A stretch of 64,000 bases of DNA from Escherichia coli (GCF_044647545.1 NZ_CP172818.1), one strand, 5' to 3'; positions 1 through 61,861 are shown, counted from the first letter of the stretch. Program-made: numbers and translations. Notes: generated by a model not told the origin, from the sequence alone.

Positions 1-154
1 GGAGGATCATACTATGAATGCATTTTTGCGTTTTCTGGATGCAGATATCCAGAACAACCCGCAAAAAACTCGTCCATTCAACATTCAACAAGGAAAGAAA
101 CTTGTCGCTGGCATGGACGTCAACATTGATGATGAGATTGGCGACGACGAATAA
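1..154 (+). CDS. prlF: PrlF (SohA) antitoxin, 3' portion only (5' end lies outside the window)
   Basis: In-frame translation ends ...MNAFLRFLDADIQNNPQKTRPFNIQQGKKLVAGMDVNIDDEIGDDE, stop TAA at 152-154 overlapping the yhaV ATG by 1 nt; recognised as the PrlF C-terminus. Confidence 0.8.
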   Translation, partial: EDHTMNAFLRFLDADIQNNPQKTRPFNIQQGKKLVAGMDVNIDDEIGDDE

Positions 155-618
155 TGGATTTTCCACAAAGGGTTAATGGTTGGGCGCTATATGCTCATCC
201 CTGTTTTCAGGAAACCTACGACGCTTTAGTTGCCGAAGTCGAGACATTAAAGGGAAAAGATCCTGAAAATTATCAGAGAAAAGCCGCCACAAAGTTATTG
301 GCGGTAGTCCATAAAGTGATTGAGGAGCATATCACGGTCAATCCATCATCACCGGCATTCCGTCATGGCAAGTCGTTAGGCTCTGGGAAAAATAAAGACT
401 GGTCACGGGTAAAATTTGGTGCTGGTCGTTATCGTCTCTTCTTTCGTTACAGCGAAAAAGAGAAAGTCATCATTCTGGGATGGATGAACGATGAAAACAC
501 GCTGCGCACCTACGGTAAAAAAACAGATGCCTATACCGTATTCAGCAAAATGTTAAAAAGAGGACATCCTCCTGCCGACTGGGAAACCCTCACCCGAGAG
601 ACAGAAGAAACCCATTGA
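154..618 (+). CDS. yhaV: YhaV ribosome-dependent mRNA interferase toxin (PrlF-YhaV TA system)
   Basis: 154-aa ORF in track; sequence recognised as YhaV; immediately downstream of and overlapping prlF. Confidence 0.9.
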   Translation: MDFPQRVNGWALYAHPCFQETYDALVAEVETLKGKDPENYQRKAATKLLAVVHKVIEEHITVNPSSPAFRHGKSLGSGKNKDWSRVKFGAGRYRLFFRYSEKEKVIILGWMNDENTLRTYGKKTDAYTVFSKMLKRGHPPADWETLTRETEETH

Positions 619-672
619 TGGTATTCACAATGCCCGCCGAACGCATTCGTGTTGACCAGCGGGCACCCTTTC

Positions 673-1482
673 TCACTCCCCGACCAGAATCACTTCAACC
701 CCAGCCTTTCGCAGTCCTTCCAGACTATCCGCAGGAATGCCTTCATCAACAATGATCATGTCGATACGTTGAGTATCAATGATCTTATGTAAACTGGAAC
801 GGTTGAACTTACTGGAATCGGTGACCACGATGATCCGTTCCGCAACTTCGCACATCCGACGGTTTAAACGGGCTTCATCTTCATTATGCGTGCTGACGCC
901 GCGCTCCAGATCGATCGCATCTACACCAAGAAACAGCATATCGAAGTGGTAATTTTGCAGCGATTGCTCAGCCTGATCACCGTAAAAAGATTGCGACTGA
1001 CGGCGCAAATGCCCCCCGGTCATCAGCAGCTCAACGCCTTCCGCTTCCAGCAACGCATTAGCCACGTTCATACCGTTGGTCATCGCAATTACGTCGGTGT
1101 GCTTGCGCATCAGACGAGCAATCTCAAAAGTGGTGGTCCCGGAGTCGAGGATCACCCGATGACCAGGCTGAATCAACTCAACGGCAGCTTTCGCAACGCT
1201 GCGTTTCATTGCGGTGTTCAGCGCGCTTTTATCTTCCACTGATGGCTCGACTGACGGCGTCGTGCTATCGCAGATCAACGCGCCGCCATAGGCACGCACA
1301 GCGATCCCCTGCTTTTCCAGAAACGCCAGATCGTTGCGGATCGTCACAGTAGATACACCATACAACGCCGATAGATCATTAACTTGCACACTCCCTTGCT
1401 GGCGCAGGCGTTGAATGATCTGCTCTCGTCGCTCACTGGTGCCTGTCACTCGCTTCTCGCCTGAAGCGTCGGTATTACTCAT
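673..1482 (-). CDS. agaR: AgaR, DeoR-family transcriptional repressor of the aga cluster
   Basis: 269-aa ORF; N-terminal HTH plus DeoR sugar-binding domain; divergent from kbaZ. Confidence 0.92.
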
Positions 1483-1487
1483 AGTAA

Positions 1488-1700
1488 GTCCTTTCGTAAA
1501 ACTTTCGTTTCATTTCGTTTTGCCTATTAACGCCTTTCTATTAAGCAAATGCAAGCCCACCTTACCCATTGGCGCAAGCTACTCTCGTTTCAGTGGCTTT
1601 CATTATGTTTCTTTTGTGAATCAGATCAGAAAACTATTATCTTTCGTTTTATTTTTATCTCACCATGGCGCAGTATCAACTGAAACAAAACGAAAGATTA
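1488..1700. promoter_or_regulatory. agaR-kbaZ divergent promoter region with repeated TTTCRTTT/CTTTC motifs (putative AgaR operators)
   Basis: Multiple direct and inverted copies of ctttcgttt, tttcatttcgtttt, gaaacaaaacgaaag in a 250-bp AT-rich intergenic region; AgaR operators are known to be CTTTC-rich. Confidence 0.5.
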
Positions 1701-1730
1701 ATATCGCAGTAATCTGAACTGGAGAGGAAA

Positions 1731-3011
1731 GTGAAACATCTGACAGAAATGGTGAGACAGCACAAAGAGGGCAAAACAAATGGGATTTATGCCGTTTGTT
1801 CCGCACATCCGCTGGTGCTGGAAGCTGCAATCCGCTACGCCAGTGCAAACCAAACGCCGTTACTGATTGAAGCAACCTCCAATCAGGTGGACCAGTTCGG
1901 CGGTTATACCGGAATGACGCCCGCCGATTTTCGCGGCTTTGTTTGTCAGCTCGCCGACTCGTTGAATTTCCCACAGGATGCGTTGATTCTGGGTGGCGAC
2001 CATCTGGGGCCAAACCGCTGGCAAAACCTGCCTGCCGCTCAGGCAATGGCCAATGCCGATGATTTGATTAAAAGCTACGTGGCGGCAGGATTCAAAAAAA
2101 TTCACCTTGATTGCAGCATGTCCTGTCAGGACGATCCGATTCCCTTAACTGATGACATCGTGGCCGAACGCGCCGCTCGTCTGGCGAAAGTGGCGGAAGA
2201 AACCTGCCGTGAACATTTTGGCGCGGCCGATCTGGAGTATGTCATTGGTACCGAAGTACCGGTACCTGGCGGCGCGCATGAAACCTTAAGCGAGCTGGCG
2301 GTCACCACGCCGGATGCCGCCCGCGCCACACTGGAAGCCCATCGCCACGCCTTTGAAAAGCAGGGCCTGAATGCCATCTGGCCACGCATTATTGCCCTGG
2401 TGGTTCAACCCGGCGTCGAATTCGATCACACCAACGTTATTGATTATCAGCCAGCTAAAGCGACCGCATTAAGCCAGATGGTCGAAAACTACGAAACGCT
2501 GATTTTCGAAGCGCACTCTACCGATTACCAAACGCCGCAATCGTTGCGCCAGCTGGTGATTGACCACTTTGCCATTCTGAAAGTTGGCCCGGCGCTGACC
2601 TTCGCCCTGCGTGAAGCTCTGTTCTCTCTGGCGGCGATTGAAGAAGAACTGGTGCCAGCAAAAGCCTGTTCTGGTCTGCGTCAGGTGCTGGAAAACGTGA
2701 TGCTCGACCGCCCGGAATACTGGCAAAGCCACTACCACGGTGACGGCAACGCGCGTCGTCTGGCGCGTGGTTATAGCTACTCGGATCGCGTGCGCTATTA
2801 CTGGCCGGACAGCCAGATTGATGACGCTTTCGCTCATCTGGTTCGTAATCTGGCGGATTCACCAATTCCGCTACCGCTCATCAGCCAGTATTTGCCGCTG
2901 CAATACGTGAAAGTTCGCTCCGGCGAGCTGCAGCCAACACCACGGGAACTCATTATCAACCATATTCAGGACATCCTGGCGCAGTACCACACAGCCTGTG
3001 AAGGCCAATAA
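1731..3011 (+). CDS. kbaZ: KbaZ (AgaZ) tagatose-bisphosphate aldolase non-catalytic subunit
   Basis: 426-aa ORF beginning GTG at 1731; recognised sequence. Confidence 0.9.
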
Positions 3012-3033
3012 GCAAAACAAAGAGGAACACGCT

Positions 3034-3507
3034 ATGCCAAATATTGTTTTAAGCCGGATTGATGAGCGTTTGATTCACGGTCAGGTCGGCGTTCAGTGGG
3101 TCGGATTTGCGGGGGCAAATCTGGTGCTGGTAGCCAACGATGAGGTTGCCGAAGATCCGGTACAACAAAACCTGATGGAAATGGTACTGGCAGAAGGGAT
3201 CGCCGTACGTTTCTGGACGCTGCAAAAAGTCATCGACAACATTCATCGCGCCGCCGATCGACAGAAAATCCTGCTGGTTTGTAAAACACCTGCCGATTTC
3301 CTGACGCTGGTGAAAGGTGGCGTTCCGGTGAATCGCATTAACGTTGGCAATATGCACTACGCCAATGGCAAGCAACAAATCGCCAAAACGGTTTCTGTGG
3401 ATGCGGGTGATATCGCAGCATTTAACGACCTGAAAGCCGCTGGGGTGGAATGCTTCGTTCAGGGCGTCCCGACAGAGCCTGCTGTGGACCTCTTTAAATT
3501 ACTTTGA
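3034..3507 (+). CDS. agaV: AgaV, PTS N-acetylgalactosamine-specific EIIB component
   Basis: ATG at 3034 (MPNIVLSRIDERLIHGQVG...), 157 aa; the track ORF begins 12 codons upstream. Confidence 0.9.
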   Translation: MPNIVLSRIDERLIHGQVGVQWVGFAGANLVLVANDEVAEDPVQQNLMEMVLAEGIAVRFWTLQKVIDNIHRAADRQKILLVCKTPADFLTLVKGGVPVNRINVGNMHYANGKQQIAKTVSVDAGDIAAFNDLKAAGVECFVQGVPTEPAVDLFKLL

Positions 3508-3517
3508 GGGATTCATC

Positions 3518-3919
3518 ATGGAAATCAGTCTGTTGCAGGCATTCGCGTTGGGCATTATCGCCTTTATCGCTGGCCTGGATATGTTTAACGGCCTAACCCA
3601 TATGCACCGCCCGGTGGTCCTCGGCCCGTTGGTCGGGCTGGTACTTGGCGATCTGCATACCGGTATTTTAACCGGCGGTACGCTGGAACTGGTGTGGATG
3701 GGGCTGGCCCCGCTGGCGGGCGCACAGCCGCCTAACGTGATTATCGGTACTATCGTCGGCACGGCGTTTGCCATTACTACTGGCGTGAAACCCGATGTCG
3801 CGGTCGGTGTCGCCGTACCTTTCGCTGTCGCAGTACAGATGGGGATTACCTTCCTGTTCTCGGTGATGTCCGGCGTGATGTCCCGCGGCGACCTGGCAAC
3901 AAACCCGTGCCGCGTTTGA
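3518..3919 (+). pseudogene. agaW: agaW' fragment of PTS EIIC component (N-terminal part only)
   Basis: 133-aa ORF with IIC-like transmembrane N-terminus that terminates prematurely; matches the truncated agaW of K-12, where agaE/agaF are missing. Confidence 0.8.
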
Positions 3920-3938
3920 CGCTGGTGCCGACGGCCTG

Positions 3939-4442
3939 GTGCATTGCTATAACGGGATGACAGGTTTACATCACCGCGAACCGGGAATGGTTGGCGCGGG
4001 ATTAACGGACAAGCGCGCCTGGCTGGAACTGATAGCCGATGGTCATCATGTACATCCGGCGGCGATGTCGCTGTGTTGTTGCTGTGCGAAAGAGAGAATC
4101 GTGCTGATCACCGACGCGATGCAGGCAGCCGGGATGCCGGATGGTCGCTATACGTTATGTGGTGAAGAAGTGCAGATGCACGATGGCGTTGTCCGTACCG
4201 CGTCCGGTGGGCTGGCGGGCAGTACGCTGTCTGTCGATGCGGCAGTGCGCAACATGGTCGAGTTGACGGGCGTAACGCCTGCGGAAGCCATCCATATGGC
4301 ATCGCTGCATCCGGCGCGTATGCTGGGTGTTGATGGTGTTCTGGGATCGCTTAAACCGGGCAAACGCGCCAGCGTCGTTGCGCTGGATAGCGGGCTGCAT
4401 GTGCAACAAATCTGGATTCAGGGTCAATTAGCTTCGTTTTGA
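3939..4442 (+). pseudogene. agaA: agaA' fragment of N-acetylgalactosamine-6-phosphate deacetylase (C-terminal part only)
   Basis: 167-aa ORF corresponding to the C-terminal region of a NagA-like amidohydrolase; no N-terminal metal-binding region. Confidence 0.8.
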
Positions 4443-4518
4443 TGGTTTGCTCCTTTATTGGGCCTTCACTTCCCCCGTAAGGCCTTTCTTTTTCTTTCTT
4501 TTTGATCTGTGCAGCGGT

Positions 4519-4575
4519 GTCGGATGCGACGCTGACGCGTCTTCTTCGACCTACGGTACGCCGCATCCGGCAATC
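4519..4575. repeat. REP-like palindromic element
   Basis: gtcggatgcgacgctgacgcgtcttcttcgacctacggtacgccgcatccggca; reverse complement begins GCCGGATGCGGCGTA, typical of REP. Confidence 0.5.
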
Positions 4576-4599
4576 GGTGAACATAGCGACGTTATCACG

Positions 4600-4755
4600 C
4601 AATCCTTTAATCTTCCCTTGTCTTTTCTTTCAATGATCACAAATTTCGTTTTATTTCTTTTTTCTCCATTGAACTTTCAGTTTCTTTTCTATAGATTTTA
4701 ATCAACGAAAGACATCACCAAGTGAAATGAAACGAAAGGTAAGCGAAAGCGACAA
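4600..4755. promoter_or_regulatory. agaS promoter region with CTTTC/TTTCRTTT repeats (putative AgaR operators)
   Basis: Clustered motifs cttttctttc, tttcgttttatttc, tttcagtttcttttc, gaaatgaaacgaaag directly upstream of agaS. Confidence 0.5.
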
Positions 4756-4792
4756 CGCCCGACGCCAAGTTCATCAGACTAAGGATTGAGTT

Positions 4793-5947
4793 ATGCCAGA
4801 AAATTACACCCCTGCTGCCGCTGCAACCGGTACATGGACTGAAGAAGAGATCCGCCATCAGCCTCGCGCATGGATCCGTTCACTCACCAACATCGACGCG
4901 CTACGTTCCGCGCTCAATAACTTCCTTGAACCGTTACTGCGCAAAGAGAATCTGCGGGTAATCCTGACCGGAGCCGGAACCTCGGCATTTATCGGTGATA
5001 TCATCGCGCCGTGGCTCGCCAGCCATACCGGTAAAAACTTCAGCGCCGTACCGACCACCGATCTGGTCACTAATCCGATGGACTACCTGAATCCAGCTCA
5101 TCCGCTACTGTTGATCTCCTTCGGTCGATCCGGCAACAGCCCGGAAAGCGTCGCCGCCGTGGAACTGGCGAATCAGTTTGTACCGGAATGCTATCACCTG
5201 CCGATCACCTGCAACGAAGCGGGCGCTCTTTACCAAAACGCGATCAACAGCGACAACGCGTTTGCCCTGCTGATGCCCGCAGAAACGCACGATCGCGGCT
5301 TTGCGATGACCAGCAGCATTACCACCATGATGGCCAGCTGCCTCGCGGTTTTCGCACCTGAGACGATCAACAGCCAAACCTTCCGCGATGTGGCAGATCG
5401 TTGCCAGGAAATCCTGACCTCACTGGGCGATTTCAGCGAAGGTGTGTTTGGTTACGCACCGTGGAAACGGATCGTTTATCTCGGCAGCGGTGGCTTACAG
5501 GGCGCAGCACGCGAGTCGGCGCTGAAAGTACTGGAACTGACAGCGGGTAAACTGGCGGCCTTTTATGATTCCCCGACCGGATTCCGTCATGGCCCGAAAT
5601 CGCTGGTCGATAACGAAACGCTGGTGGTGGTGTTTGTCTCCAGCCACCCTTACACCCGTCAGTATGATCTTGATCTGCTGGCAGAACTCCGCCGCGATAA
5701 CCAGGCATTGCGCGTAATCGCCATCGCCGCGGAAAGCAACGACGTTATTACCGCCGGTCCACATATCATCCTGCCGCCGTCCCGTCACTTTATCGACGTT
5801 GAGCAGGCATTTTGCTTCCTGATGTACGCCCAGACGTTTGCACTGATGCAGTCGCTGCACATGGGTAATACGCCGGATACCCCATCAGCCAGTGGCACCG
5901 TTAACCGCGTGGTGCAAGGCGTAATCATTCATCCGTGGCAGGCATAA
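4793..5947 (+). CDS. agaS: AgaS, SIS-domain sugar isomerase/deaminase (putative galactosamine-6-phosphate deaminase)
   Basis: 384-aa ORF; recognised sequence. Confidence 0.92.
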   Translation: MPENYTPAAAATGTWTEEEIRHQPRAWIRSLTNIDALRSALNNFLEPLLRKENLRVILTGAGTSAFIGDIIAPWLASHTGKNFSAVPTTDLVTNPMDYLNPAHPLLLISFGRSGNSPESVAAVELANQFVPECYHLPITCNEAGALYQNAINSDNAFALLMPAETHDRGFAMTSSITTMMASCLAVFAPETINSQTFRDVADRCQEILTSLGDFSEGVFGYAPWKRIVYLGSGGLQGAARESALKVLELTAGKLAAFYDSPTGFRHGPKSLVDNETLVVVFVSSHPYTRQYDLDLLAELRRDNQALRVIAIAAESNDVITAGPHIILPPSRHFIDVEQAFCFLMYAQTFALMQSLHMGNTPDTPSASGTVNRVVQGVIIHPWQA

Positions 5948-6820
<873 letters not shown>

Positions 6821-6986
6821 TCATTAGTTTTTTATGATTTATCCCAATGTACTTCCCGATTAATATCGGGGAGTGCCTTAATGGAAAAGGAGATGACTAA
6901 ACCTTAATAAATACATAAGTACAATATCGCAACAATAATATATTTAAAAAAATTATATTATTCAACTTTATGGTGAGGATTACACA

Positions 6987-7463
6987 ATGAGCAGTCCAAA
7001 TATTCTCTTAACCCGTATTGATAACCGTCTGGTTCACGGTCAGGTTGGCGTGACCTGGACATCCACCATCGGTGCGAATCTGTTGGTAGTCGTGGATGAT
7101 GTTGTCGCTAACGATGATATTCAACAGAAATTAATGGGTATTACCGCAGAAACCTACGGCTTTGGCATTCGTTTCTTTACTATCGAAAAAACCATTAACG
7201 TCATCGGCAAAGCTGCACCGCATCAGAAGATCTTCCTGATTTGCCGTACGCCACAAACGGTACGTAAATTGGTAGAAGGTGGTATTGACCTGAAAGATGT
7301 CAACGTCGGCAATATGCATTTCTCGGAAGGGAAAAAGCAAATCAGCAGTAAAGTTTATGTCGATGACCAGGATCTCACGGACTTACATTTTATTAAACAA
7401 CGTGGCGTGAATGTTTTCATTCAGGACGTCCCTGGCGATCAAAAAGAACAAATCCCTGACTAA
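6987..7463 (+). CDS. agaB: AgaB, PTS galactosamine-specific EIIB component
   Basis: 158-aa ORF; paralogous to AgaV (RIDNRLVHGQVG motif). Confidence 0.92.
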   Translation: MSSPNILLTRIDNRLVHGQVGVTWTSTIGANLLVVVDDVVANDDIQQKLMGITAETYGFGIRFFTIEKTINVIGKAAPHQKIFLICRTPQTVRKLVEGGIDLKDVNVGNMHFSEGKKQISSKVYVDDQDLTDLHFIKQRGVNVFIQDVPGDQKEQIPD

Positions 7464-7501
7464 ATCTAAAATCGCCTTAATATTGGTTTGAGGTAATAAA
7501 A

Positions 7502-8305
7502 ATGCATGAAATAACCCTACTCCAGGGATTATCCCTGGCGGCGTTAGTTTTCTTTCTGGGGATTGATTTTTGGCTGGAAGCCTTATTTTTATTCCGCCCG
7601 ATAATCGTTTGTACCCTTACAGGTGCTATTCTCGGTGATATTCAGACTGGCTTAATTACCGGTGGCCTGACAGAGTTGGCTTTCGCCGGATTAACCCCTG
7701 CAGGTGGTGTTCAGCCGCCCAACCCTATTATGGCGGGTCTGATGACCACTGTCATTGCATGGTCTACGGGCGTTGATGCCAAAACGGCAATTGGTCTTGG
7801 CCTGCCGTTTAGTTTGTTAATGCAGTACGTCATTCTGTTCTTCTATTCCGCTTTCTCATTATTTATGACCAAAGCCGATAAATGCGCAAAAGAGGCGGAT
7901 ACGGCAGCATTTTCCCGACTTAACTGGACAACGATGCTCATCGTCGCTTCAGCGTATGCGGTGATTGCTTTCCTCTGTACTTACCTGGCACAAGGGGCGA
8001 TGCAGGCGCTGGTGAAAGCGATGCCCGCTTGGCTGACCCACGGCTTTGAAGTGGCTGGCGGTATTCTGCCTGCCGTTGGTTTTGGCTTGCTGCTGCGCGT
8101 GATGTTCAAAGCGCAATATATCCCTTACCTGATCGCCGGTTTCCTGTTCGTTTGCTACATCCAGGTCAGCAACCTGTTGCCGGTTGCCGTGCTGGGTGCA
8201 GGCTTTGCGGTGTATGAGTTTTTCAATGCGAAATCCCGGCAGCAAGCGCAACCGCAGTCCGTTGTCAGTAATAATGAAGAAGAGGACTACAGCAATGGGA
8301 TCTGA
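7502..8305 (+). CDS. agaC: AgaC, PTS galactosamine-specific EIIC component
   Basis: 267-aa hydrophobic ORF. Confidence 0.92.
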   Translation: MHEITLLQGLSLAALVFFLGIDFWLEALFLFRPIIVCTLTGAILGDIQTGLITGGLTELAFAGLTPAGGVQPPNPIMAGLMTTVIAWSTGVDAKTAIGLGLPFSLLMQYVILFFYSAFSLFMTKADKCAKEADTAAFSRLNWTTMLIVASAYAVIAFLCTYLAQGAMQALVKAMPAWLTHGFEVAGGILPAVGFGLLLRVMFKAQYIPYLIAGFLFVCYIQVSNLLPVAVLGAGFAVYEFFNAKSRQQAQPQSVVSNNEEEDYSNGI

Positions 8306-9086
8306 AATCAGTAAAAAAGATATCACCCGTCTGGGCTTTCGTTCGTCACTGCTGCAAGCGAGCTTTAACTACGAAAGGATGCAGGCGGGCGGTTTTACCT
8401 GGGCGATGTTGCCGATCCTGAAAAAGATTTATAAGGACGACAAACCGGGCCTAAGCGCGGCGATGAAAGATAACCTCGAATTTATTAATACCCACCCGAA
8501 TCTGGTCGGATTCCTGATGGGGTTATTAATTTCGATGGAAGAAAAAGGAGAAAACCGCGACACCATTAAAGGCCTCAAAGTGGCACTGTTTGGCCCAATC
8601 GCCGGGATTGGCGATGCGATTTTCTGGTTTACCTTATTGCCGATTATGGCGGGAATTTGCTCATCATTTGCCAGCCAGGGAAACTTGCTGGGGCCGATTC
8701 TATTTTTCGCCGTTTACCTGCTTATCTTCTTCCTGCGCGTCGGCTGGACCCACGTCGGTTATTCAGTCGGCGTGAAGGCTATTGATAAAGTGCGAGAGAA
8801 CTCGCAGATGATTGCTCGTTCGGCAACCATCCTCGGGATCACGGTAATCGGCGGGCTGATCGCTTCGTATGTGCATATTAACGTGGTGACATCGTTTGCC
8901 ATCGACAGTACCCACAGCGTCGCACTGCAGCAGGATTTCTTCGATAAAGTCTTCCCGAACATTTTACCGATGGCCTACACCCTGCTGATGTATTACTTCC
9001 TGCGGGTGAAAAAAGCGCATCCGGTGCTGTTAATCGGCGTGACTTTTGTGCTCTCTATTGTTTGTTCCGCATTCGGCATTTTGTAA
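8295..9086 (+). CDS. agaD: AgaD, PTS galactosamine-specific EIID component
   Basis: ATG at 8295 (MGSEISKKDITRLGF...), 263 aa, overlapping the agaC 3' end by 11 nt; the track ORF begins 37 codons upstream. Confidence 0.9.
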   Translation: MGSEISKKDITRLGFRSSLLQASFNYERMQAGGFTWAMLPILKKIYKDDKPGLSAAMKDNLEFINTHPNLVGFLMGLLISMEEKGENRDTIKGLKVALFGPIAGIGDAIFWFTLLPIMAGICSSFASQGNLLGPILFFAVYLLIFFLRVGWTHVGYSVGVKAIDKVRENSQMIARSATILGITVIGGLIASYVHINVVTSFAIDSTHSVALQQDFFDKVFPNILPMAYTLLMYYFLRVKKAHPVLLIGVTFVLSIVCSAFGIL

Positions 9087-9953
9087 ATGGAACGAGGCAC
9101 TGCGTCTGGCGGTGCCTCTTTACTTAAGGAATTTCATCCTGTGCAAACCCTTCAACAAGTTGAAAACTATACGGCGTTAAGTGAACGTGCCAGCGAATAT
9201 TTATTGGCCGTGATCCGTAGTAAACCGGATGCCGTGATTTGCCTGGCGACCGGAGCCACGCCATTACTGACGTATCATTATCTGGTAGAAAAAATCCACC
9301 AGCAGCAGGTTGATGTCAGCCAGCTCACCTTCGTGAAGCTCGACGAATGGGTGGATCTGCCATTAACAATGCCTGGCACCTGCGAAACTTTCCTACAACA
9401 GCATATCGTGCAGCCGCTGGGGCTGCGTGAAGACCAGCTCATCAGCTTTCGCTCTGAAGAGATAAATGAGACAGAGTGCGAACGGGTAACGAACCTGATT
9501 GCGCGCAAAGGCGGTCTGGATTTATGCGTTCTCGGATTGGGGAAAAACGGTCATCTTGGGCTGAACGAACCGGGAGAAAGCCTGCAACCGGCCTGCCATA
9601 TCAGTCAACTTGATGCCAGAACACAGCAACATGAGATGTTAAAAACCGCGGGCCGTCCCGTGACTCGTGGGATCACCTTAGGCCTGAAGGATATTCTCAA
9701 TACCCGCGAAGTTTTGCTACTGGTGACTGGCGAAGGAAAGCAGGATGCGACAGAACGTTTTCTCACGGCTAAAGTCTCTACCGCTATCCCGGCTTCTTGG
9801 GGCAACGCCCACACTCTCCCCCTGCTGCTCCAGTGCATACTTATACAGCGCATTTTTCTTCACGCCGTGAATTTCTGCTGCCAGCGCCGCCGCTTTTTTC
9901 AGTGGCAGTTCTGCCTGCAACAGCGCCAGCGTGCGCAGGGCATCGGCGGGTAA
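9087..9953 (+). CDS. agaI: AgaI-like galactosamine-6-phosphate isomerase/deaminase (NagB family) with altered 3' end: after about codon 238 the ORF is translation of antisense rsmI
   Basis: NagB-family ORF, ATG at 9087. Reference AgaI is recalled as 251 aa; here the frame stays open to 9953 (288 aa) and the tail ...[36 protein letters not shown]... is not NagB-like. Confidence 0.7.
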
Positions 9954-10676
9954 GTCTTCTTCCTGTGCTTTATGGCCTTCGACAATCAGTACCATTTCGC
10001 CTTTGCGACGGTTTTCATCTTCTTTGACCCACGCCAGCAGCTCGCCAACGGGCGCGCCGTGAATGGTTTCCCAGGTTTTGGTCAGCTCACGCGCCAGAAC
10101 GACGTAGCGGGATTCGCCTAATACCGCAACGATATCTTCCAGGCTATCTAACAGACGGTGGGTAGATTCATAAAAAATCAGCGTGCGCGGCTCCGCTTCA
10201 ATGGCTTTTAGCGCATCACGGCGGCCTTTTGATTTGGCAGGTAAAAAGCCTTCATAACAAAAACGATCGGATGGTAAACCCGCGGCGCTTAACGCAGTGA
10301 TAGCAGCACACGGCCCGGGTAGCGGCACCACGCGAATCCCCGCTTCACGGCAGGTACGCACCAGATGGTAGCCAGGATCGTTAATTAGCGGCGTTCCGGC
10401 ATCGGAAACCAGCGCAATGTTTTGCCCCTCTTGCAGCTTCGCCAGCAGCGTTTCGGCTTTTTGTTGTTCGTTATGGTCGTGCAGCGCAAACAACCGAGCA
10501 TTAATCCCAAAATGTTGCAGCAATAAACCGGTGTGACGCGTATCCTCGGCGGCAATCAGATCAACGGCCTGTAATACCTCCAACGCACGCTGGGTGATAT
10601 CCGCCAGATTGCCGATTGGCGTCGGTACAATGTAAAGCTGGCCCTGAGAATTATCCGCCGATTGGTGTTGTTTCAT
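9717..10676 (-). CDS. rsmI: RsmI 16S rRNA 2'-O-ribose C1402 methyltransferase, with a C-terminal read-through tail into antisense agaI
   Basis: 319-aa ORF versus a recalled 286 aa for RsmI; N-terminus [35 protein letters not shown]... recognised; the tail after ...KYALEQQGE is antisense of agaI. Confidence 0.8.
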
Positions 10677-35965: not shown

Positions 35966-37324
<1,359 letters not shown>

Positions 37325-37331
37325 TTCGACA

Positions 37332-38957
37332 TCAACCCTGCCCTTCAGGGGTGGGGTTACCTTGCTTATCCTCAGTAAACTCCTTTCTTAGCATCACAAA
37401 ATCGAAAACATCATGGTTTGCATCTACAACCCGTGAGTCTCCTTTATAGTGTGCAATCACTTCCTCAAGCGTTTGCGGCTGTTCCGGCTTTGTTACCCCC
37501 ATCCACGCATTAATAAGGTAATTATTGTACGCAGTGGAAAAGATATCGTTTTCCGTTGTGCGATCCACGCCATCCCCAAGAACGGGGCTATACCAGATAA
37601 ACATCGGGACATGATATGCCTGCTGGCTGGCCTCCCTGCCTCCATGAAAATAGACGTTCTTCTTCGTAGGGTCGCGTTCCAGGCCGTGGTCGGCAAAATA
37701 CATGACCGAGGCGCGGCGATCTTTTAATAATTCAAAAACCTGACCTAGCAAACTATCTGTGTAATGAATGGAGTTGTCATAGCAGGCATCCTGATCGTCC
37801 TGCGGTTGAAACACGGCGCTGGATTGCGGATAGGCGCTACAAGCCGGTTCATGGCTTCCATTTAAATGAAGAACAATCAGTTTCTTTTGCTGCGTCTTTT
37901 GCTGTAACGCTTGCGATAAATGCGGCAACAACAATTCATCAAATCCTCTGACATAGACTGTTTCCATGGCGCGCATGGCGATACTGGTAACTGCTGTACC
38001 ATTCTGCCGAAAAGCGGATTGCGAGCTTAGCCAGAAAGTCTGAAATCCTGCTTGATTAGCCATATTAATAATGTTGTCCGGGTAATTATGAATGTCATGA
38101 CTCAAAACAGAATCAGCAGTTAAAGAAAGGGGAACCGACAGCGCAGTGTAAGGTGCACCGCTTATTGCTTGATTAAACAGTTTGATCTGTTTTCTTTGTG
38201 CTTCGACTTGCGGTGTCGTAGAGCGTGTGTATCCATACAAAGACATATTGTCGACACGTACAGACTCCCCCACAATCAACACGTAGGTATCAATACCTGT
38301 ATCCCTGACTGATAATTGAAAATACGGCACCGTGTTTGCAATTGAGAGTAATCTTTGATGCTCTTTCGCTGCTAAAGCAAAATAATTGAGATTGAAAAAC
38401 GGTGTATAGGTAGCAAATCGCGACGCTAGTATATATGGACTGAACGCTTTTTTATTTTTTGCATCTTTATAAGCAAATTGACAAGCGGAAAATAAACTGC
38501 CCGAAATGACAATCAGCAATAATATTCCTGTCACTTTTTTTGTCGGCAAGGAAACATCATATTTTATTATTACTGCCAAAAAAAGAAGGGATAAAAAAGC
38601 AAAAGCACATAGATAAGGGATATACATCCCCAGCATTTTCACAACTTCATCCGGATCACTCTGCAGCACACTAATCGCAAATCCATCATTGAAAGTTGTA
38701 CCAAAGGTACACCATGAATAGAGGCTAATACTCATGTCTGCCGCAGTCAGTAACACAAATGGTGCGGCAACAAGCAGGCGAAGCGGAAGGGATGATATAC
38801 GTTTAACAACCAGGATGGTCAGAACGAAAAACAGCAATCGCTGAACCATATGCGCTCCGGAAGAGGCGACTAAGTTCGTAATACCAAAAACAATAACACA
38901 AAGATACAACAACCAATGAGATTTAAAACTTCTAACAAATTTGTTGAATACTGTCAT
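37332..38957 (-). CDS. yhbX: YhbX, putative phosphoethanolamine transferase-like inner-membrane protein
   Basis: ATG at 38957, about 541 aa, sulfatase-like domain; the track ORF begins 11 codons upstream. Confidence 0.85.
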   Translation of the reverse strand: MTVFNKFVRSFKSHWLLYLCVIVFGITNLVASSGAHMVQRLLFFVLTILVVKRISSLPLRLLVAAPFVLLTAADMSISLYSWCTFGTTFNDGFAISVLQSDPDEVVKMLGMYIPYLCAFAFLSLLFLAVIIKYDVSLPTKKVTGILLLIVISGSLFSACQFAYKDAKNKKAFSPYILASRFATYTPFFNLNYFALAAKEHQRLLSIANTVPYFQLSVRDTGIDTYVLIVGESVRVDNMSLYGYTRSTTPQVEAQRKQIKLFNQAISGAPYTALSVPLSLTADSVLSHDIHNYPDNIINMANQAGFQTFWLSSQSAFRQNGTAVTSIAMRAMETVYVRGFDELLLPHLSQALQQKTQQKKLIVLHLNGSHEPACSAYPQSSAVFQPQDDQDACYDNSIHYTDSLLGQVFELLKDRRASVMYFADHGLERDPTKKNVYFHGGREASQQAYHVPMFIWYSPVLGDGVDRTTENDIFSTAYNNYLINAWMGVTKPEQPQTLEEVIAHYKGDSRVVDANHDVFDFVMLRKEFTEDKQGNPTPEGQG

Positions 38958-39376
38958 CCAGAAATCCAAGTTCACAACCAATATAAACAATTATCAACAA
39001 TGTTCAATTTTATATCAGACATGTTTTTCAACTCTGATCCATATCAGACCGAAACACTGTTAGTTTTTTCTTTTTAAATGATGCGGCCATTGTTCTCAGT
39101 AATTAAATAACATTATCAATGCGTCTCTAAACATTACGCAGAACGTAGCCATCAGTAGTTATACTGACAGGAGCAGGATGGTTTATCGAGAAGTAAACAT
39201 ATCCGTATTCGTACCGGAACTGGAGTTGACACAATAAAGTGCCAATTATGTCAGCAGAAGGGAAAAGTTTATAACTAAGGCGTACCGGCACCATCGTTTC
39301 AAGGTACCAGCTACGAGTAAAGCAACTGGACGAGATACAGATACCTGACAACCATTCCTCAGACCAGGACCAAAAC

Positions 39377-39405
39377 GAAAAGAGACGCTTTTCAGCGTCT
39401 CTTTT
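39377..39405 (-). terminator. Rho-independent terminator downstream of leuU
   Basis: aaaagagacgcttttcagcgtctctttt perfect hairpin with flanking T-run. Confidence 0.7.
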
Positions 39406-39413
39406 CTGGAATT

Positions 39414-39500
39414 TGGTACCGAGGACGGGACTTGAACCCGTAAGCCCTATTGGGCACTACCACCTCAAGGTAGCGTGTCTACCAATTCCACCACCTCGGC
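39414..39500 (-). tRNA. leuU: tRNA-Leu (anticodon GAG)
   Basis: Minus-strand 87-nt sequence gccgaggtggtggaattggtagacacgctaccttgaggtggtagtgcccaatagggcttacgggttcaagtcccgtcctcggtacca. Confidence 0.95.
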
Positions 39501-39514
39501 ACGGATACTACTTT

Positions 39515-39847
39515 TTAGTTCGGGATATCGCTGGTCGGCTTAGCCGGAGCAGCTGGCTGAGTTTGTTCGGTTTTCGCCGGCGCACTCAGGTTTTCCCATT
39601 CGCTACCTTTATTGGTTTTATTGCTATTGATGTTACCCAGCACCAGACTGATGATGAAGAATAACGTTGCCAGCAGCGCCGTCATGCGGGTCATGAAGTT
39701 ACCAGAACCACTTGAACCAAACAGCGTAGCGGAAGCGCCTGCTCCGAAGGAGGCTCCCATATCAGCGCCTTTACCTTGCTGCAGCATGATCAGACCAACA
39801 AGGCCAATTGCCACAATAAGGAAAACTACTAAAAGAGCTTCGTACAT
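39515..39847 (-). CDS. secG: SecG preprotein translocase subunit
   Basis: ATG at 39847 (MYEALLVVFLIVAIGLVGLIMLQQGKG), 110 aa; the track ORF begins 16 codons upstream. Confidence 0.93.
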   Translation of the reverse strand: MYEALLVVFLIVAIGLVGLIMLQQGKGADMGASFGAGASATLFGSSGSGNFMTRMTALLATLFFIISLVLGNINSNKTNKGSEWENLSAPAKTEQTQPAAPAKPTSDIPN

Positions 39848-60031: not shown

Positions 60032-60603
60032 GTAAAGCCAGACGTTGGGTTATCATTGTGCTATCACTGGCGGTTCTGGTGATGATCGGCATTAATATGG
60101 CCGAAAAAGACGATACCGCCCAGGTGGTCGTCAACAACAATGATCCCACCTATAAAAGCGAGCATACGGACACGCTCGTCTATAACCCAGAAGGGGCACT
60201 AAGCTATCGATTGATTGCTCAACATGTTGAATATTATTCCGATCAGGCCGTTTCGTGGTTTACGCAGCCGGTACTTACCACGTTTGATAAGGATAAAATC
60301 CCGACATGGTCAGTAAAAGCAGATAAAGCCAAGCTGACCAATGACCGGATGCTCTATTTATATGGACACGTTGAAGTCAACGCACTTGTGCCGGACTCTC
60401 AACTTCGCAGAATCACGACGGATAACGCGCAGATCAATCTGGTGACGCAGGATGTTACCTCTGAAGACCTCGTCACGTTATACGGAACAACATTTAACTC
60501 CAGCGGTCTGAAAATGCGCGGCAACTTACGCAGCAAGAACGCCGAGCTGATTGAAAAGGTTAGAACATCCTATGAAATTCAAAACAAACAAACTCAGCCT
60601 TAA
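60028..60603 (+). CDS. lptC: LptC lipopolysaccharide export protein
   Basis: 191-aa ORF overlapping the kdsC stop by 4 nt. Confidence 0.93.
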   Translation: MSKARRWVIIVLSLAVLVMIGINMAEKDDTAQVVVNNNDPTYKSEHTDTLVYNPEGALSYRLIAQHVEYYSDQAVSWFTQPVLTTFDKDKIPTWSVKADKAKLTNDRMLYLYGHVEVNALVPDSQLRRITTDNAQINLVTQDVTSEDLVTLYGTTFNSSGLKMRGNLRSKNAELIEKVRTSYEIQNKQTQP

Positions 60604-61129
60604 TCTTGTGCTTGCCAGCTCACTTCTGGCCGCCAGCATTCCGGCATTTGCTGTAACCGGAGACACTGATCAGCCGATCCACATTGAATCGGACCAGCAA
60701 TCTCTTGATATGCAAGGCAACGTGGTTACCTTTACCGGTAATGTCATCGTCACCCAGGGCACCATCAAAATTAATGCCGACAAAGTGGTCGTTACCCGTC
60801 CGGGCGGCGAACAAGGTAAAGAAGTGATTGACGGCTACGGTAAACCGGCAACGTTCTACCAGATGCAGGACAATGGTAAACCCGTTGAAGGTCACGCTTC
60901 CCAGATGCACTACGAACTGGCAAAAGATTTTGTCGTTCTGACGGGTAATGCTTATCTGCAGCAGGTCGATAGCAACATTAAGGGCGATAAGATCACTTAC
61001 CTGGTGAAAGAGCAGAAAATGCAGGCTTTCAGCGACAAAGGTAAGCGCGTAACCACCGTTCTGGTGCCGTCGCAGCTGCAAGACAAAAACAACAAAGGCC
61101 AGACCCCGGCACAGAAGAAGGGTAATTAA
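60572..61129 (+). CDS. lptA: LptA periplasmic lipopolysaccharide transport protein
   Basis: ATG at 60572 (MKFKTNKLSLNLVLASSLLAASIPAFA), 185 aa. Confidence 0.93.
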   Translation: MKFKTNKLSLNLVLASSLLAASIPAFAVTGDTDQPIHIESDQQSLDMQGNVVTFTGNVIVTQGTIKINADKVVVTRPGGEQGKEVIDGYGKPATFYQMQDNGKPVEGHASQMHYELAKDFVVLTGNAYLQQVDSNIKGDKITYLVKEQKMQAFSDKGKRVTTVLVPSQLQDKNNKGQTPAQKKGN

Positions 61130-61135
61130 TTCGTT

Positions 61136-61861
61136 ATGGCAACATTAACTGCAAAGAACCTTGCAAAAGCCTATAAAGGCCGTCGCGTGGTAGAAGACGT
61201 CAGCCTGACCGTCAACTCCGGGGAAATTGTCGGTCTGCTGGGGCCAAACGGTGCCGGTAAGACCACCACTTTCTACATGGTTGTAGGCATTGTGCCGCGC
61301 GATGCGGGCAACATCATTATTGATGATGACGATATCAGTCTGCTGCCTCTGCATGCACGCGCGCGCCGCGGTATCGGCTATCTGCCACAGGAAGCCTCCA
61401 TTTTCCGTCGCCTCAGCGTTTACGATAACCTGATGGCGGTACTGCAAATTCGTGACGACTTGTCTGCTGAACAACGTGAAGACCGCGCGAACGAGCTGAT
61501 GGAAGAGTTTCACATTGAGCACCTGCGTGACAGCATGGGGCAGTCACTCTCCGGGGGTGAACGTCGCCGTGTAGAAATTGCCCGCGCACTGGCTGCGAAT
61601 CCGAAATTTATTCTGCTCGACGAACCGTTTGCCGGGGTTGACCCGATCTCGGTTATCGACATTAAACGCATCATTGAACACCTGCGCGACAGCGGCCTGG
61701 GCGTACTGATCACTGACCACAACGTGCGTGAAACACTGGCGGTTTGTGAACGCGCTTATATCGTCAGTCAGGGGCATTTGATCGCCCACGGCACGCCTAC
61801 AGAAATCTTACAAGACGAACACGTTAAGCGTGTATACCTTGGGGAAGACTTCAGACTCTGA
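61136..61861 (+). CDS. lptB: LptB lipopolysaccharide export ABC transporter ATPase
   Basis: 241-aa ORF with Walker [10 protein letters not shown]. Confidence 0.95.

Follow-up and report, generated by a model that had tools for sequence, protein, structure and literature searches.

In Escherichia coli K-12, AT-rich DNA contains many weak sigma-70 promoters that are suppressed by H-NS, and the H-NS-repressed start sites mapped in such DNA number in the hundreds (Forrest et al. 2022, PMC8894471). The silenced loci described in that work are AT-rich and lineage-restricted, H-NS lies over the upstream region as well as the 5′ part of the gene, and start sites on both strands are derepressed when H-NS is lost while the gene itself responds modestly. 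A second well-described element is the terminator of E. coli tRNA operons such as secG-leuU and metT, in which the tRNA CCA is followed by AAUU, then by about 36 nt of hairpin region and finally by a U-tract (Mohanty and Kushner 2008, PMC2241853). Islands at tRNA genes, among them leuX, pheV and selC, place a strain-dependent cassette next to the tRNA gene, and alternative occupants exist. The excised trailer of a tRNA precursor is also known in a regulatory role, as 3′ETS-leuZ is a regulatory RNA derived from the 3′ external transcribed spacer of a tRNA.

We compared these systems with the spacer between yhbX and leuU in a 64,000-nucleotide stretch of E. coli DNA (GCF_044647545.1, NZ_CP172818.1), which is called the window throughout. 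We found that this spacer very probably consists of two parts, the 42-bp trailer and terminator of secG-leuU and a 414-bp H-NS-silenced region upstream of yhbX, and that it hides no gene.

The spacer and the secG-leuU terminator

In the window argG (35981-37324, plus strand) is followed by yhbX (37332-38957, minus strand), by leuU, which encodes tRNA-Leu(GAG) (39414-39500, minus strand), and by secG (39515-39847, minus strand), after which come glmM and folP. Because the yhbX ATG lies at 38957 and leuU occupies 39414-39500, the spacer comprises positions 38958-39413, or 456 bp. The coordinates given for it in the first-pass annotation were therefore exact, and its description as AT-rich was borne out by a GC content of 38.8%; the window as a whole has 51.8% and yhbX 43.1%. 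The GC content drops toward yhbX, from 45.2% in 39173-39371 to 35.5% in 39035-39172 and 28.6% in 38958-39034. The spacer was also said to be the largest feature-free interval of the window, and this was the case when gaps were ranked using the RefSeq annotation of a collinear strain (from about 15 kb onward) and the window's own ORF map (first 11 kb), the runners-up being 350 bp between agaA′ and agaS and 347 bp between metY and argG. In the aga cluster itself (1-10500) the window has the K-12-like truncated agaW′ and agaA′ (ORFs 3518-3919 and 3939-4442); strain FDAARGOS_497, which is identical to the window at the yhbX locus, carries a fuller cluster, agaW-agaE-agaF-nagA, and an IS1 within a PTS IIB gene at the agaB position.

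The K-12 counterpart of the spacer, NC_000913.3 3321614-3322071, is 458 bp long and 98.3% identical to it, and the somewhat larger region 38900-39520 is 100% identical to FDAARGOS_497 and 98.4% identical to K-12 derivatives. The spacer had no annotated feature in K-12 MG1655 or in about 70 other E. coli records listed. When eight strains were aligned, 6.5% of the spacer columns were variable, as were 6.2% in the secG-glmM spacer and 3.6–6.4% in the adjoining genes, and indels of 1, 2 and 6 bp occurred within the spacer among strains. As far as these alignments go, the spacer is under no special constraint.

The leuU 3′ trailer makes up the leuU-proximal 42 bp (39372-39413, minus strand). It begins with the AAUU cleavage site for RNase E and RNase G (39410-39413), directly after the tRNA CCA, and continues with a hairpin (39406 to 39377) and a GUUUU tract that extends to 39372; both a terminator scan and an inverted-repeat search recovered it as a Rho-independent terminator of secG-leuU. 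The stem consists of 13 bp with 100% complementarity and six G-C pairs, is closed by a 4-nt loop and is followed by GUUUUGG. It is the same element as the tRNA operon terminators of Mohanty and Kushner, and compared with the K-12 terminator the stem of this strain has one more G-C pair, position 39382 being G and not A. Among other strains compared, most have A at 39382, and TCT at 39400-39402 in the descending arm is missing in one lineage, represented by five of the sequences. The hairpin core is identical in Salmonella enterica subspecies arizonae and diarizonae, and in Citrobacter the stem is preserved by compensatory changes in both arms. Judged from this conservation, the terminator belongs to the ancestral core genome.

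In K-12, cloned 3′ ends lay beyond the terminator in 9 of 15 wild-type clones and in 13 of 14 from the rne-1 mutant, and RNase E, or also RNase G, cut within AAUU to remove the hairpin before RNase P freed the tRNA (Mohanty and Kushner 2008, PMC2241853). The trailer thus combines a G+C-rich stem-loop and U-tract with 3′ ends mapped in the K-12 literature and a conserved structure, as an intrinsic terminator does. As those published experiments show, polymerase halts past the hairpin and U-tract, RNase E or RNase G cuts the AAUU after the CCA, and RNase P then releases the tRNA. The leuU terminator that the first-pass annotation had placed in the spacer was accordingly found by scanning, has been characterised experimentally (PMC2241853) and is kept across genera. 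Like 3′ETS-leuZ, the leuU trailer is a short terminator-hairpin fragment freed from a Leu-tRNA precursor by RNase E; unlike 3′ETS-leuZ, it was regarded by Mohanty and Kushner solely as a processing by-product (PMC2241853).

H-NS binding and facing start sites upstream of yhbX

Transcript and H-NS data for the remaining 414 bp were taken from the K-12 supplementary tables of Forrest et al. 2022 (U00096.3 coordinates, PMC8894471) and were lifted onto the window by way of a K-12 alignment. Two intervals bound by H-NS in ChIP-seq, 3321691-3321768 and 3321776-3321830 (Forrest et al. 2022 Supplementary Data 3, PMC8894471), correspond to 39035-39110 and 39118-39172 of the window. Three further H-NS intervals lie in the 5′ part of yhbX (3320903-3321537, approximately 38247-38881 in the window), and five Cappable-seq start sites of the locus fall in the H-NS-bound group, two in the spacer and three within yhbX (PMC8894471). 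Those within yhbX map to about 38324 (plus strand), 38549 (minus strand) and 38784 (minus strand), that is K-12 3320980+, 3321205 and 3321440, and rose in the hns mutant by log2 fold changes of 2.2–5.4 (PMC8894471).

Both start sites of the spacer responded to the loss of H-NS. TSS_3321812, at 39154, was more active when hns was deleted (log2 fold change 2.46; PMC8894471). We read it as a minus-strand site because promoter motifs are found on that strand, namely a −10-like TATAAC (39163-39158) and TGtCAGTAT (39169-39161), and nothing −10-like occurs on the plus strand. So placed, it would point at yhbX and give a 5′ UTR of about 197 nt, which agrees with the earlier suggestion that the spacer holds the yhbX promoter. 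TSS_3321781_+, a G at 39123 on the plus strand, rose as well (log2 fold change 3.85, −log10 P 9.99; PMC8894471). Its −10 element CATTAT (39111-39116) stands seven bases upstream of the start, and a −35-like TTGTTC lies at 39090-39095. Since the two start sites face each other, the 5′-terminal 32 nt of the two RNAs would overlap; the transcript from 39123 heads toward the leuU terminator hairpin. The yhbX mRNA itself was up 3.5-fold in the hns mutant (log2 1.82, P 5.9e-07; PMC8894471). We also found that 65 bp spanning both start sites (39092-39156) were free of polymorphism in 14 haplotypes. As the 414 bp hold about 27 variant events, a gap of this length is, by a rough estimate, not unusual, and we do not claim constraint from it.

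The upstream region resembles the loci of Forrest et al. 2022 in being AT-rich and lineage-restricted. In K-12 it is bound by H-NS, which extends over the 5′ part of yhbX as well, and deletion of hns releases intergenic and intragenic start sites on both strands, with a modest rise in yhbX itself. It differs from typical H-NS-silenced DNA in being a very small islet of one gene and about 2 kb. Furthermore, yhbX, with 57% AT, is not flagged as horizontally acquired by HGT-DB or DarkHorse (PMC8894471), and the distal 200 bp of the spacer have 45% GC and lie outside the H-NS intervals. Both the binding and the behaviour of the start sites were demonstrated in K-12 and presumably apply to this strain.

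These data suggest the following course of events. By coating the 5′ part of yhbX together with the AT-rich half of the region (about 39035-39172), H-NS would restrain transcription; without H-NS, the start sites at 39154 (minus strand) and 39123 (plus strand) would become more active, and the yhbX mRNA with its 5′ UTR of about 197 nt would rise. The plus-strand site at 39123 is most likely a spurious promoter for sigma-70 polymerase in AT-rich DNA that H-NS suppresses.

Other promoter-like motifs were present in the 414 bp. Two overlapping sigma-70-like matches predicted on the minus strand, CTGATA-17-GATAAT and TTGAAC-16-TATATT, lie at 38980-39018, 20–60 bp upstream of the yhbX ATG. A consensus scan gave two sites, compared with a mean of 2.0 in shuffled sequence, so these matches are no better than chance. 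In a genomic SELEX carried out in vitro with RpoH polymerase, peak 100 was assigned to the yhbX/leuU spacer at map position 3319952, and it was weak, with an intensity of 3.2 and a cut-off of 3.0 (Shimada et al. 2017, PMC5493296). A sigma-32-like motif is predicted on the minus strand at 39274-39303, in which CTTGAAA (39303-39297) is separated by 14 nt from CGCCTTAGT (39282-39274); the −35 element is perfect, and the −10 element CGCCTTAGT is a poor match to the consensus. If the SELEX map position is a U00096.2 coordinate, as we assume, an offset of +1978 converts it to 3321930 of U00096.3, which is window position 39272. The converted peak thus falls at the sigma-32-like motif.

A chloramphenicol-resistance cassette has been inserted in K-12 at the position corresponding to about 39267-39270, as an ftsH-linked marker, and the marked strain served as the wild-type control (Fivenson et al., bioRxiv 10.1101/2023.02.03.527047), which argues that nothing important for growth was interrupted there. 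The stretch 39173-39371 is probably passenger DNA of the yhbX cassette, possibly with a weak binding site for a sigma-32-type polymerase. Two reports that name yhbX were set aside: a GalR site listed under the gene lies inside the coding sequence (3320107-3320122) and outside the spacer, and in a sigma-54 paper the gene appears merely as a knockout.

The yhbX cassette in the argG-leuU interval

The region upstream of yhbX (38958-39371, minus strand) forms the 414-bp non-coding part of a cassette whose sole gene is yhbX. The 5426 complete E. coli genomes included 5168 that have it at a coverage of at least 80% and 237 that carry a different insert of 1.2 kb in place of yhbX and its upstream region. 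Two forms of the argG-leuU interval occur in E. coli, the yhbX type accounting for about 95% of complete genomes. The alternative insert (NZ_CP031906.1, 6832-8000) encodes a protein of 317 aa with a weak N-terminal match to an XRE-type helix-turn-helix, and this XRE-like protein matched no NCBIfam family. When yhbX-type and XRE-type loci were aligned, the shared sequence stopped at 39372, the last base of the terminator U-tract, and at the opposite junction homology ended within the last codons of argG. Outside E. coli, 16 loci matched the exact leuU sequence, none of them from Escherichia, and Salmonella and Citrobacter were the genera used for comparison. There argG and leuU converge across gaps of 197 bp and 177 bp, respectively, with no gene in either genus. 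On these alignments, the 414 bp is part of an E. coli-restricted, replaceable yhbX cassette, which would have replaced an ancestral argG-leuU spacer of about 180–200 bp in the E. coli lineage.

The cassette contains no integrase, a search at up to three mismatches found no duplicate of the tRNA 3′ end, and flanking repeats were also absent; it is therefore not a classical tRNA-integrated island. By its sequence it looks like a small islet that is swapped by homologous recombination in the flanks. Like the islands at leuX, pheV and selC, it is a strain-dependent cassette that adjoins a tRNA gene and has an alternative occupant. Unlike them, it lacks an integrase, a duplicated tRNA 3′ end and flanking direct repeats, and its junctions lie after the terminator, not inside the tRNA gene, and in the last codons of argG.

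Several features of the locus were noted alongside. In three complete genomes labelled E. coli the spacer was merely 80–90% identical to that of the window, and these may be cryptic-clade strains. On the far side of yhbX, the argG and yhbX stop codons converge at a distance of 7 bp (37325-37331) with no terminator between them; Salmonella and Citrobacter have a terminator hairpin on the downstream side of argG, and the Salmonella argG-leuU spacer also appears to contain REP-type repeats. The argG-yhbX pair is listed by ExcludonFinder as overlapping transcripts (PMC12288877), and the argG-yhbX junction is the EASY-edit insertion site (PMC12421378). The EASY-edit paper was rejected as evidence on the spacer, as its site is on the argG-yhbX side of the gene. 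In strain Z1323CEC0017 (NZ_CP148409.1), copies of IS26 split yhbX and the locus is broken at about 39048, a second IS26 linking the spacer to a rearranged pitB/yghD segment.

The restriction of the cassette to E. coli was also seen in the YhbX protein. A homologue search returned E. coli proteins alone at 99–100% identity, and a scan of genome contigs with YhbX gave 95 pattern matches, none of which was confirmed. In a 50%-identity library, relatives above 50% identity formed one cluster in which every named member inspected is E. coli, and the closest full-length relatives were 42–46% identical. One of these, at 46% identity, comes from a 3.5-kb metagenome contig, where its gene neighbourhood is unrelated. 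YhbX did not reach any of the curated NCBIfam cut-offs for the EptA, CptA and MCR families. The codon score of yhbX, at 0.05, is atypical, and its GC content is 43.1%.

Two sets of apparent matches were rejected. Divergent YhbX fragments with 74–86% identity proved to be artefacts, either from a bisulfite-converted E. coli assembly or from ordinary E. coli sequence. The Logan contig from SRR3359616 is such a public assembly, in which every C outside CpG is read as T; it has been gene-called, and its falsely divergent YhbX, SecG and other proteins (68–83% identity) are a trap for homology searches. Where the cassette matched plasmid records, these were chromosomes wrongly labelled as plasmids, apart from one distant homologue of the coding part only. 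The latter, at 60311-61682 of CP057032.1, a 62-kb E. coli plasmid from cattle faeces, is a phosphoethanolamine transferase gene with 68% DNA identity to yhbX; the match covers positions 74-1445 of the query and stops short of the 5′ coding end of yhbX and of the spacer.

Open reading frame and RNA in the spacer

The first-pass annotation had noted a single long ORF in the spacer, of 74 aa, with no recognisable features and low coding likelihood. It is present at 39127-39351 on the minus strand as the longest complete ORF of the spacer, opens with TTG preceded by GAGG 5 nt upstream, and starts 21 nt past the strong terminator. Were it a real E. coli-specific small protein, perhaps newly arisen and translated through read-through of the leuU terminator, the GAGG would be in keeping with this, as would a frame that is open in 14 of 14 haplotypes, with its sole indel in-frame, and the fact that a few automatic annotations call parts of it. 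The tests of coding all gave the opposite answer. No Pfam family matched, and the homology search that had been proposed found no homologues among 5.8 billion clustered proteins, where the matches were five sporadic gene calls on E. coli DNA only. The codon log-odds of −0.20 equalled the median of 82 out-of-frame shadow ORFs of the same window (mean −0.18), and those of real genes had a mean of +0.39 and a 5th percentile of +0.06. In eight strains the frame contained 4 synonymous and 7 nonsynonymous SNPs, where 23% synonymous is the neutral expectation, and one in-frame deletion of 6 bp; 14 haplotypes added one more nonsynonymous change, Pro to Ser. With so few SNPs, chance alone would be expected to leave the frame intact.

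When the spacer was shuffled 2000 times with its dinucleotides preserved, 11% of the shuffles also gave an ORF of 74 aa or longer, which makes this one unremarkable. Gene callers run on 10 contigs did not call it, and the curated K-12 annotation omits it, yet includes proteins as small as YrbN. The two mapped start sites are located past its start codon, and the strong terminator is directly upstream. The ORF thus showed neither homologues or purifying selection nor coding-like codon usage, and the low coding likelihood first assigned to it held in the homology, codon-usage and selection tests. We give next to no weight to a translated small protein and regard the 74-codon frame as a chance open frame and no gene.

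The same question was asked of RNA. At permissive E-values, Rfam models matched the tRNA alone, the next best hit scoring 24 bits against a gathering score of 55. Folding z-scores were −1.58 for the yhbX leader, −1.3 for the distal minus strand with the terminator left out and −2.65 for the plus-strand RNA from 39123. The last value is reached only because the terminator hairpin is included; the centroid structure keeps that hairpin and a few short stems. On the plus strand the hairpin is a weak terminator, as its stem is followed by only four U, and it fails the terminator scan in that orientation.

The start site at 39123 could nevertheless be taken to give rise to a genuine regulatory RNA, about 285 nt long, which would end at or near the leuU hairpin and act on yhbX by base-pairing with the initial 32 nt of its long 5′ UTR or by transcriptional interference between the facing promoters. 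The RNA has an experimentally mapped start site of its own with CATTAT upstream, its H-NS response is strong (log2 fold change 3.85), its 5′ end overlaps that of the minus-strand transcript by 32 nt, and the hairpin lies downstream of it in a whole RNA with a z-score of −2.65. That score is driven by the terminator hairpin, however, which with its four U is not a terminator by the scan on this strand. The RNA has no Rfam family, its sequence does not exist outside E. coli and shows no significant fold without the terminator. In addition, H-NS-repressed start sites of this kind number hundreds in AT-rich DNA (PMC8894471), and a strain in which a resistance cassette interrupts the RNA was used as a wild-type control (bioRxiv 10.1101/2023.02.03.527047). 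A regulatory RNA of this size is left with a slim chance, and the plus-strand start is no evidence of a stable small RNA, which the first-pass annotation had named as a refuting observation. The narrower proposal that the transcript is a functional antisense regulator of yhbX is highly unlikely. The same can be said of a small switch made of the facing H-NS-gated promoters at 39154 (minus strand) and 39123 (plus strand), in which the plus-strand RNA of about 285 nt, cryptic and specific to E. coli, would counteract yhbX mRNA with the long leader, a proposal to which we attach very little probability. If it were true, the switch would provide an envelope-stress-specific on/off control of an orphan phosphoethanolamine-transferase paralogue, with the weak sigma-32 polymerase site as an additional heat input.

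On the opposite strand, the yhbX 5′ UTR from 39154 might be a dedicated regulatory leader, for instance a riboswitch or RNA thermometer, the target of a small RNA or an attenuator based on an upstream ORF. At about 197 nt it is long for E. coli, contains ATG-initiated ORFs of 12–20 codons (for example MAASFKKKKLTVFRSDMDQS at 39090-39028), and includes the palindrome TCTGATATGGATCAGA and the repeated ATATCAGAC. The weak folding of this UTR and the lack of an Rfam match speak against such a role, as do its variation among strains, with a 2-bp indel, a 1-bp indel and several SNPs, and its lack of orthologues outside E. coli. We consider a dedicated leader quite unlikely. Silencing by H-NS of a promoter region, without any gene, small RNA or leader element, remains the preferred reading of the 414 bp.

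Every test that was run agreed with the first-pass view of the spacer as a yhbX promoter region plus the leuU terminator without a gene. To that view the analysis adds the silencing by H-NS, the plus-strand start site at 39123 and the assignment of 414 of the 456 bp to a replaceable yhbX cassette. Much of the material was already known, as the terminator is a textbook element that has been dissected and the H-NS sites and start sites are in published supplementary tables; what is contributed here is the split of the spacer at 39372, the recognition of an E. coli-specific replaceable cassette, and its connection with published H-NS binding and two opposed silenced start sites. Collectively, these results explain the emptiness of the largest gap of the window and support the use of the spacer as a neutral site for marker insertion. 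They mark the argG-leuU interval as a small replacement hot spot in E. coli, occupied by yhbX or by an XRE-like gene. The yhbX gene, silenced and uncharacterised, is related to the EptA/MCR enzymes, and studies of when it is expressed can take H-NS and the 39154 start site as their starting points.
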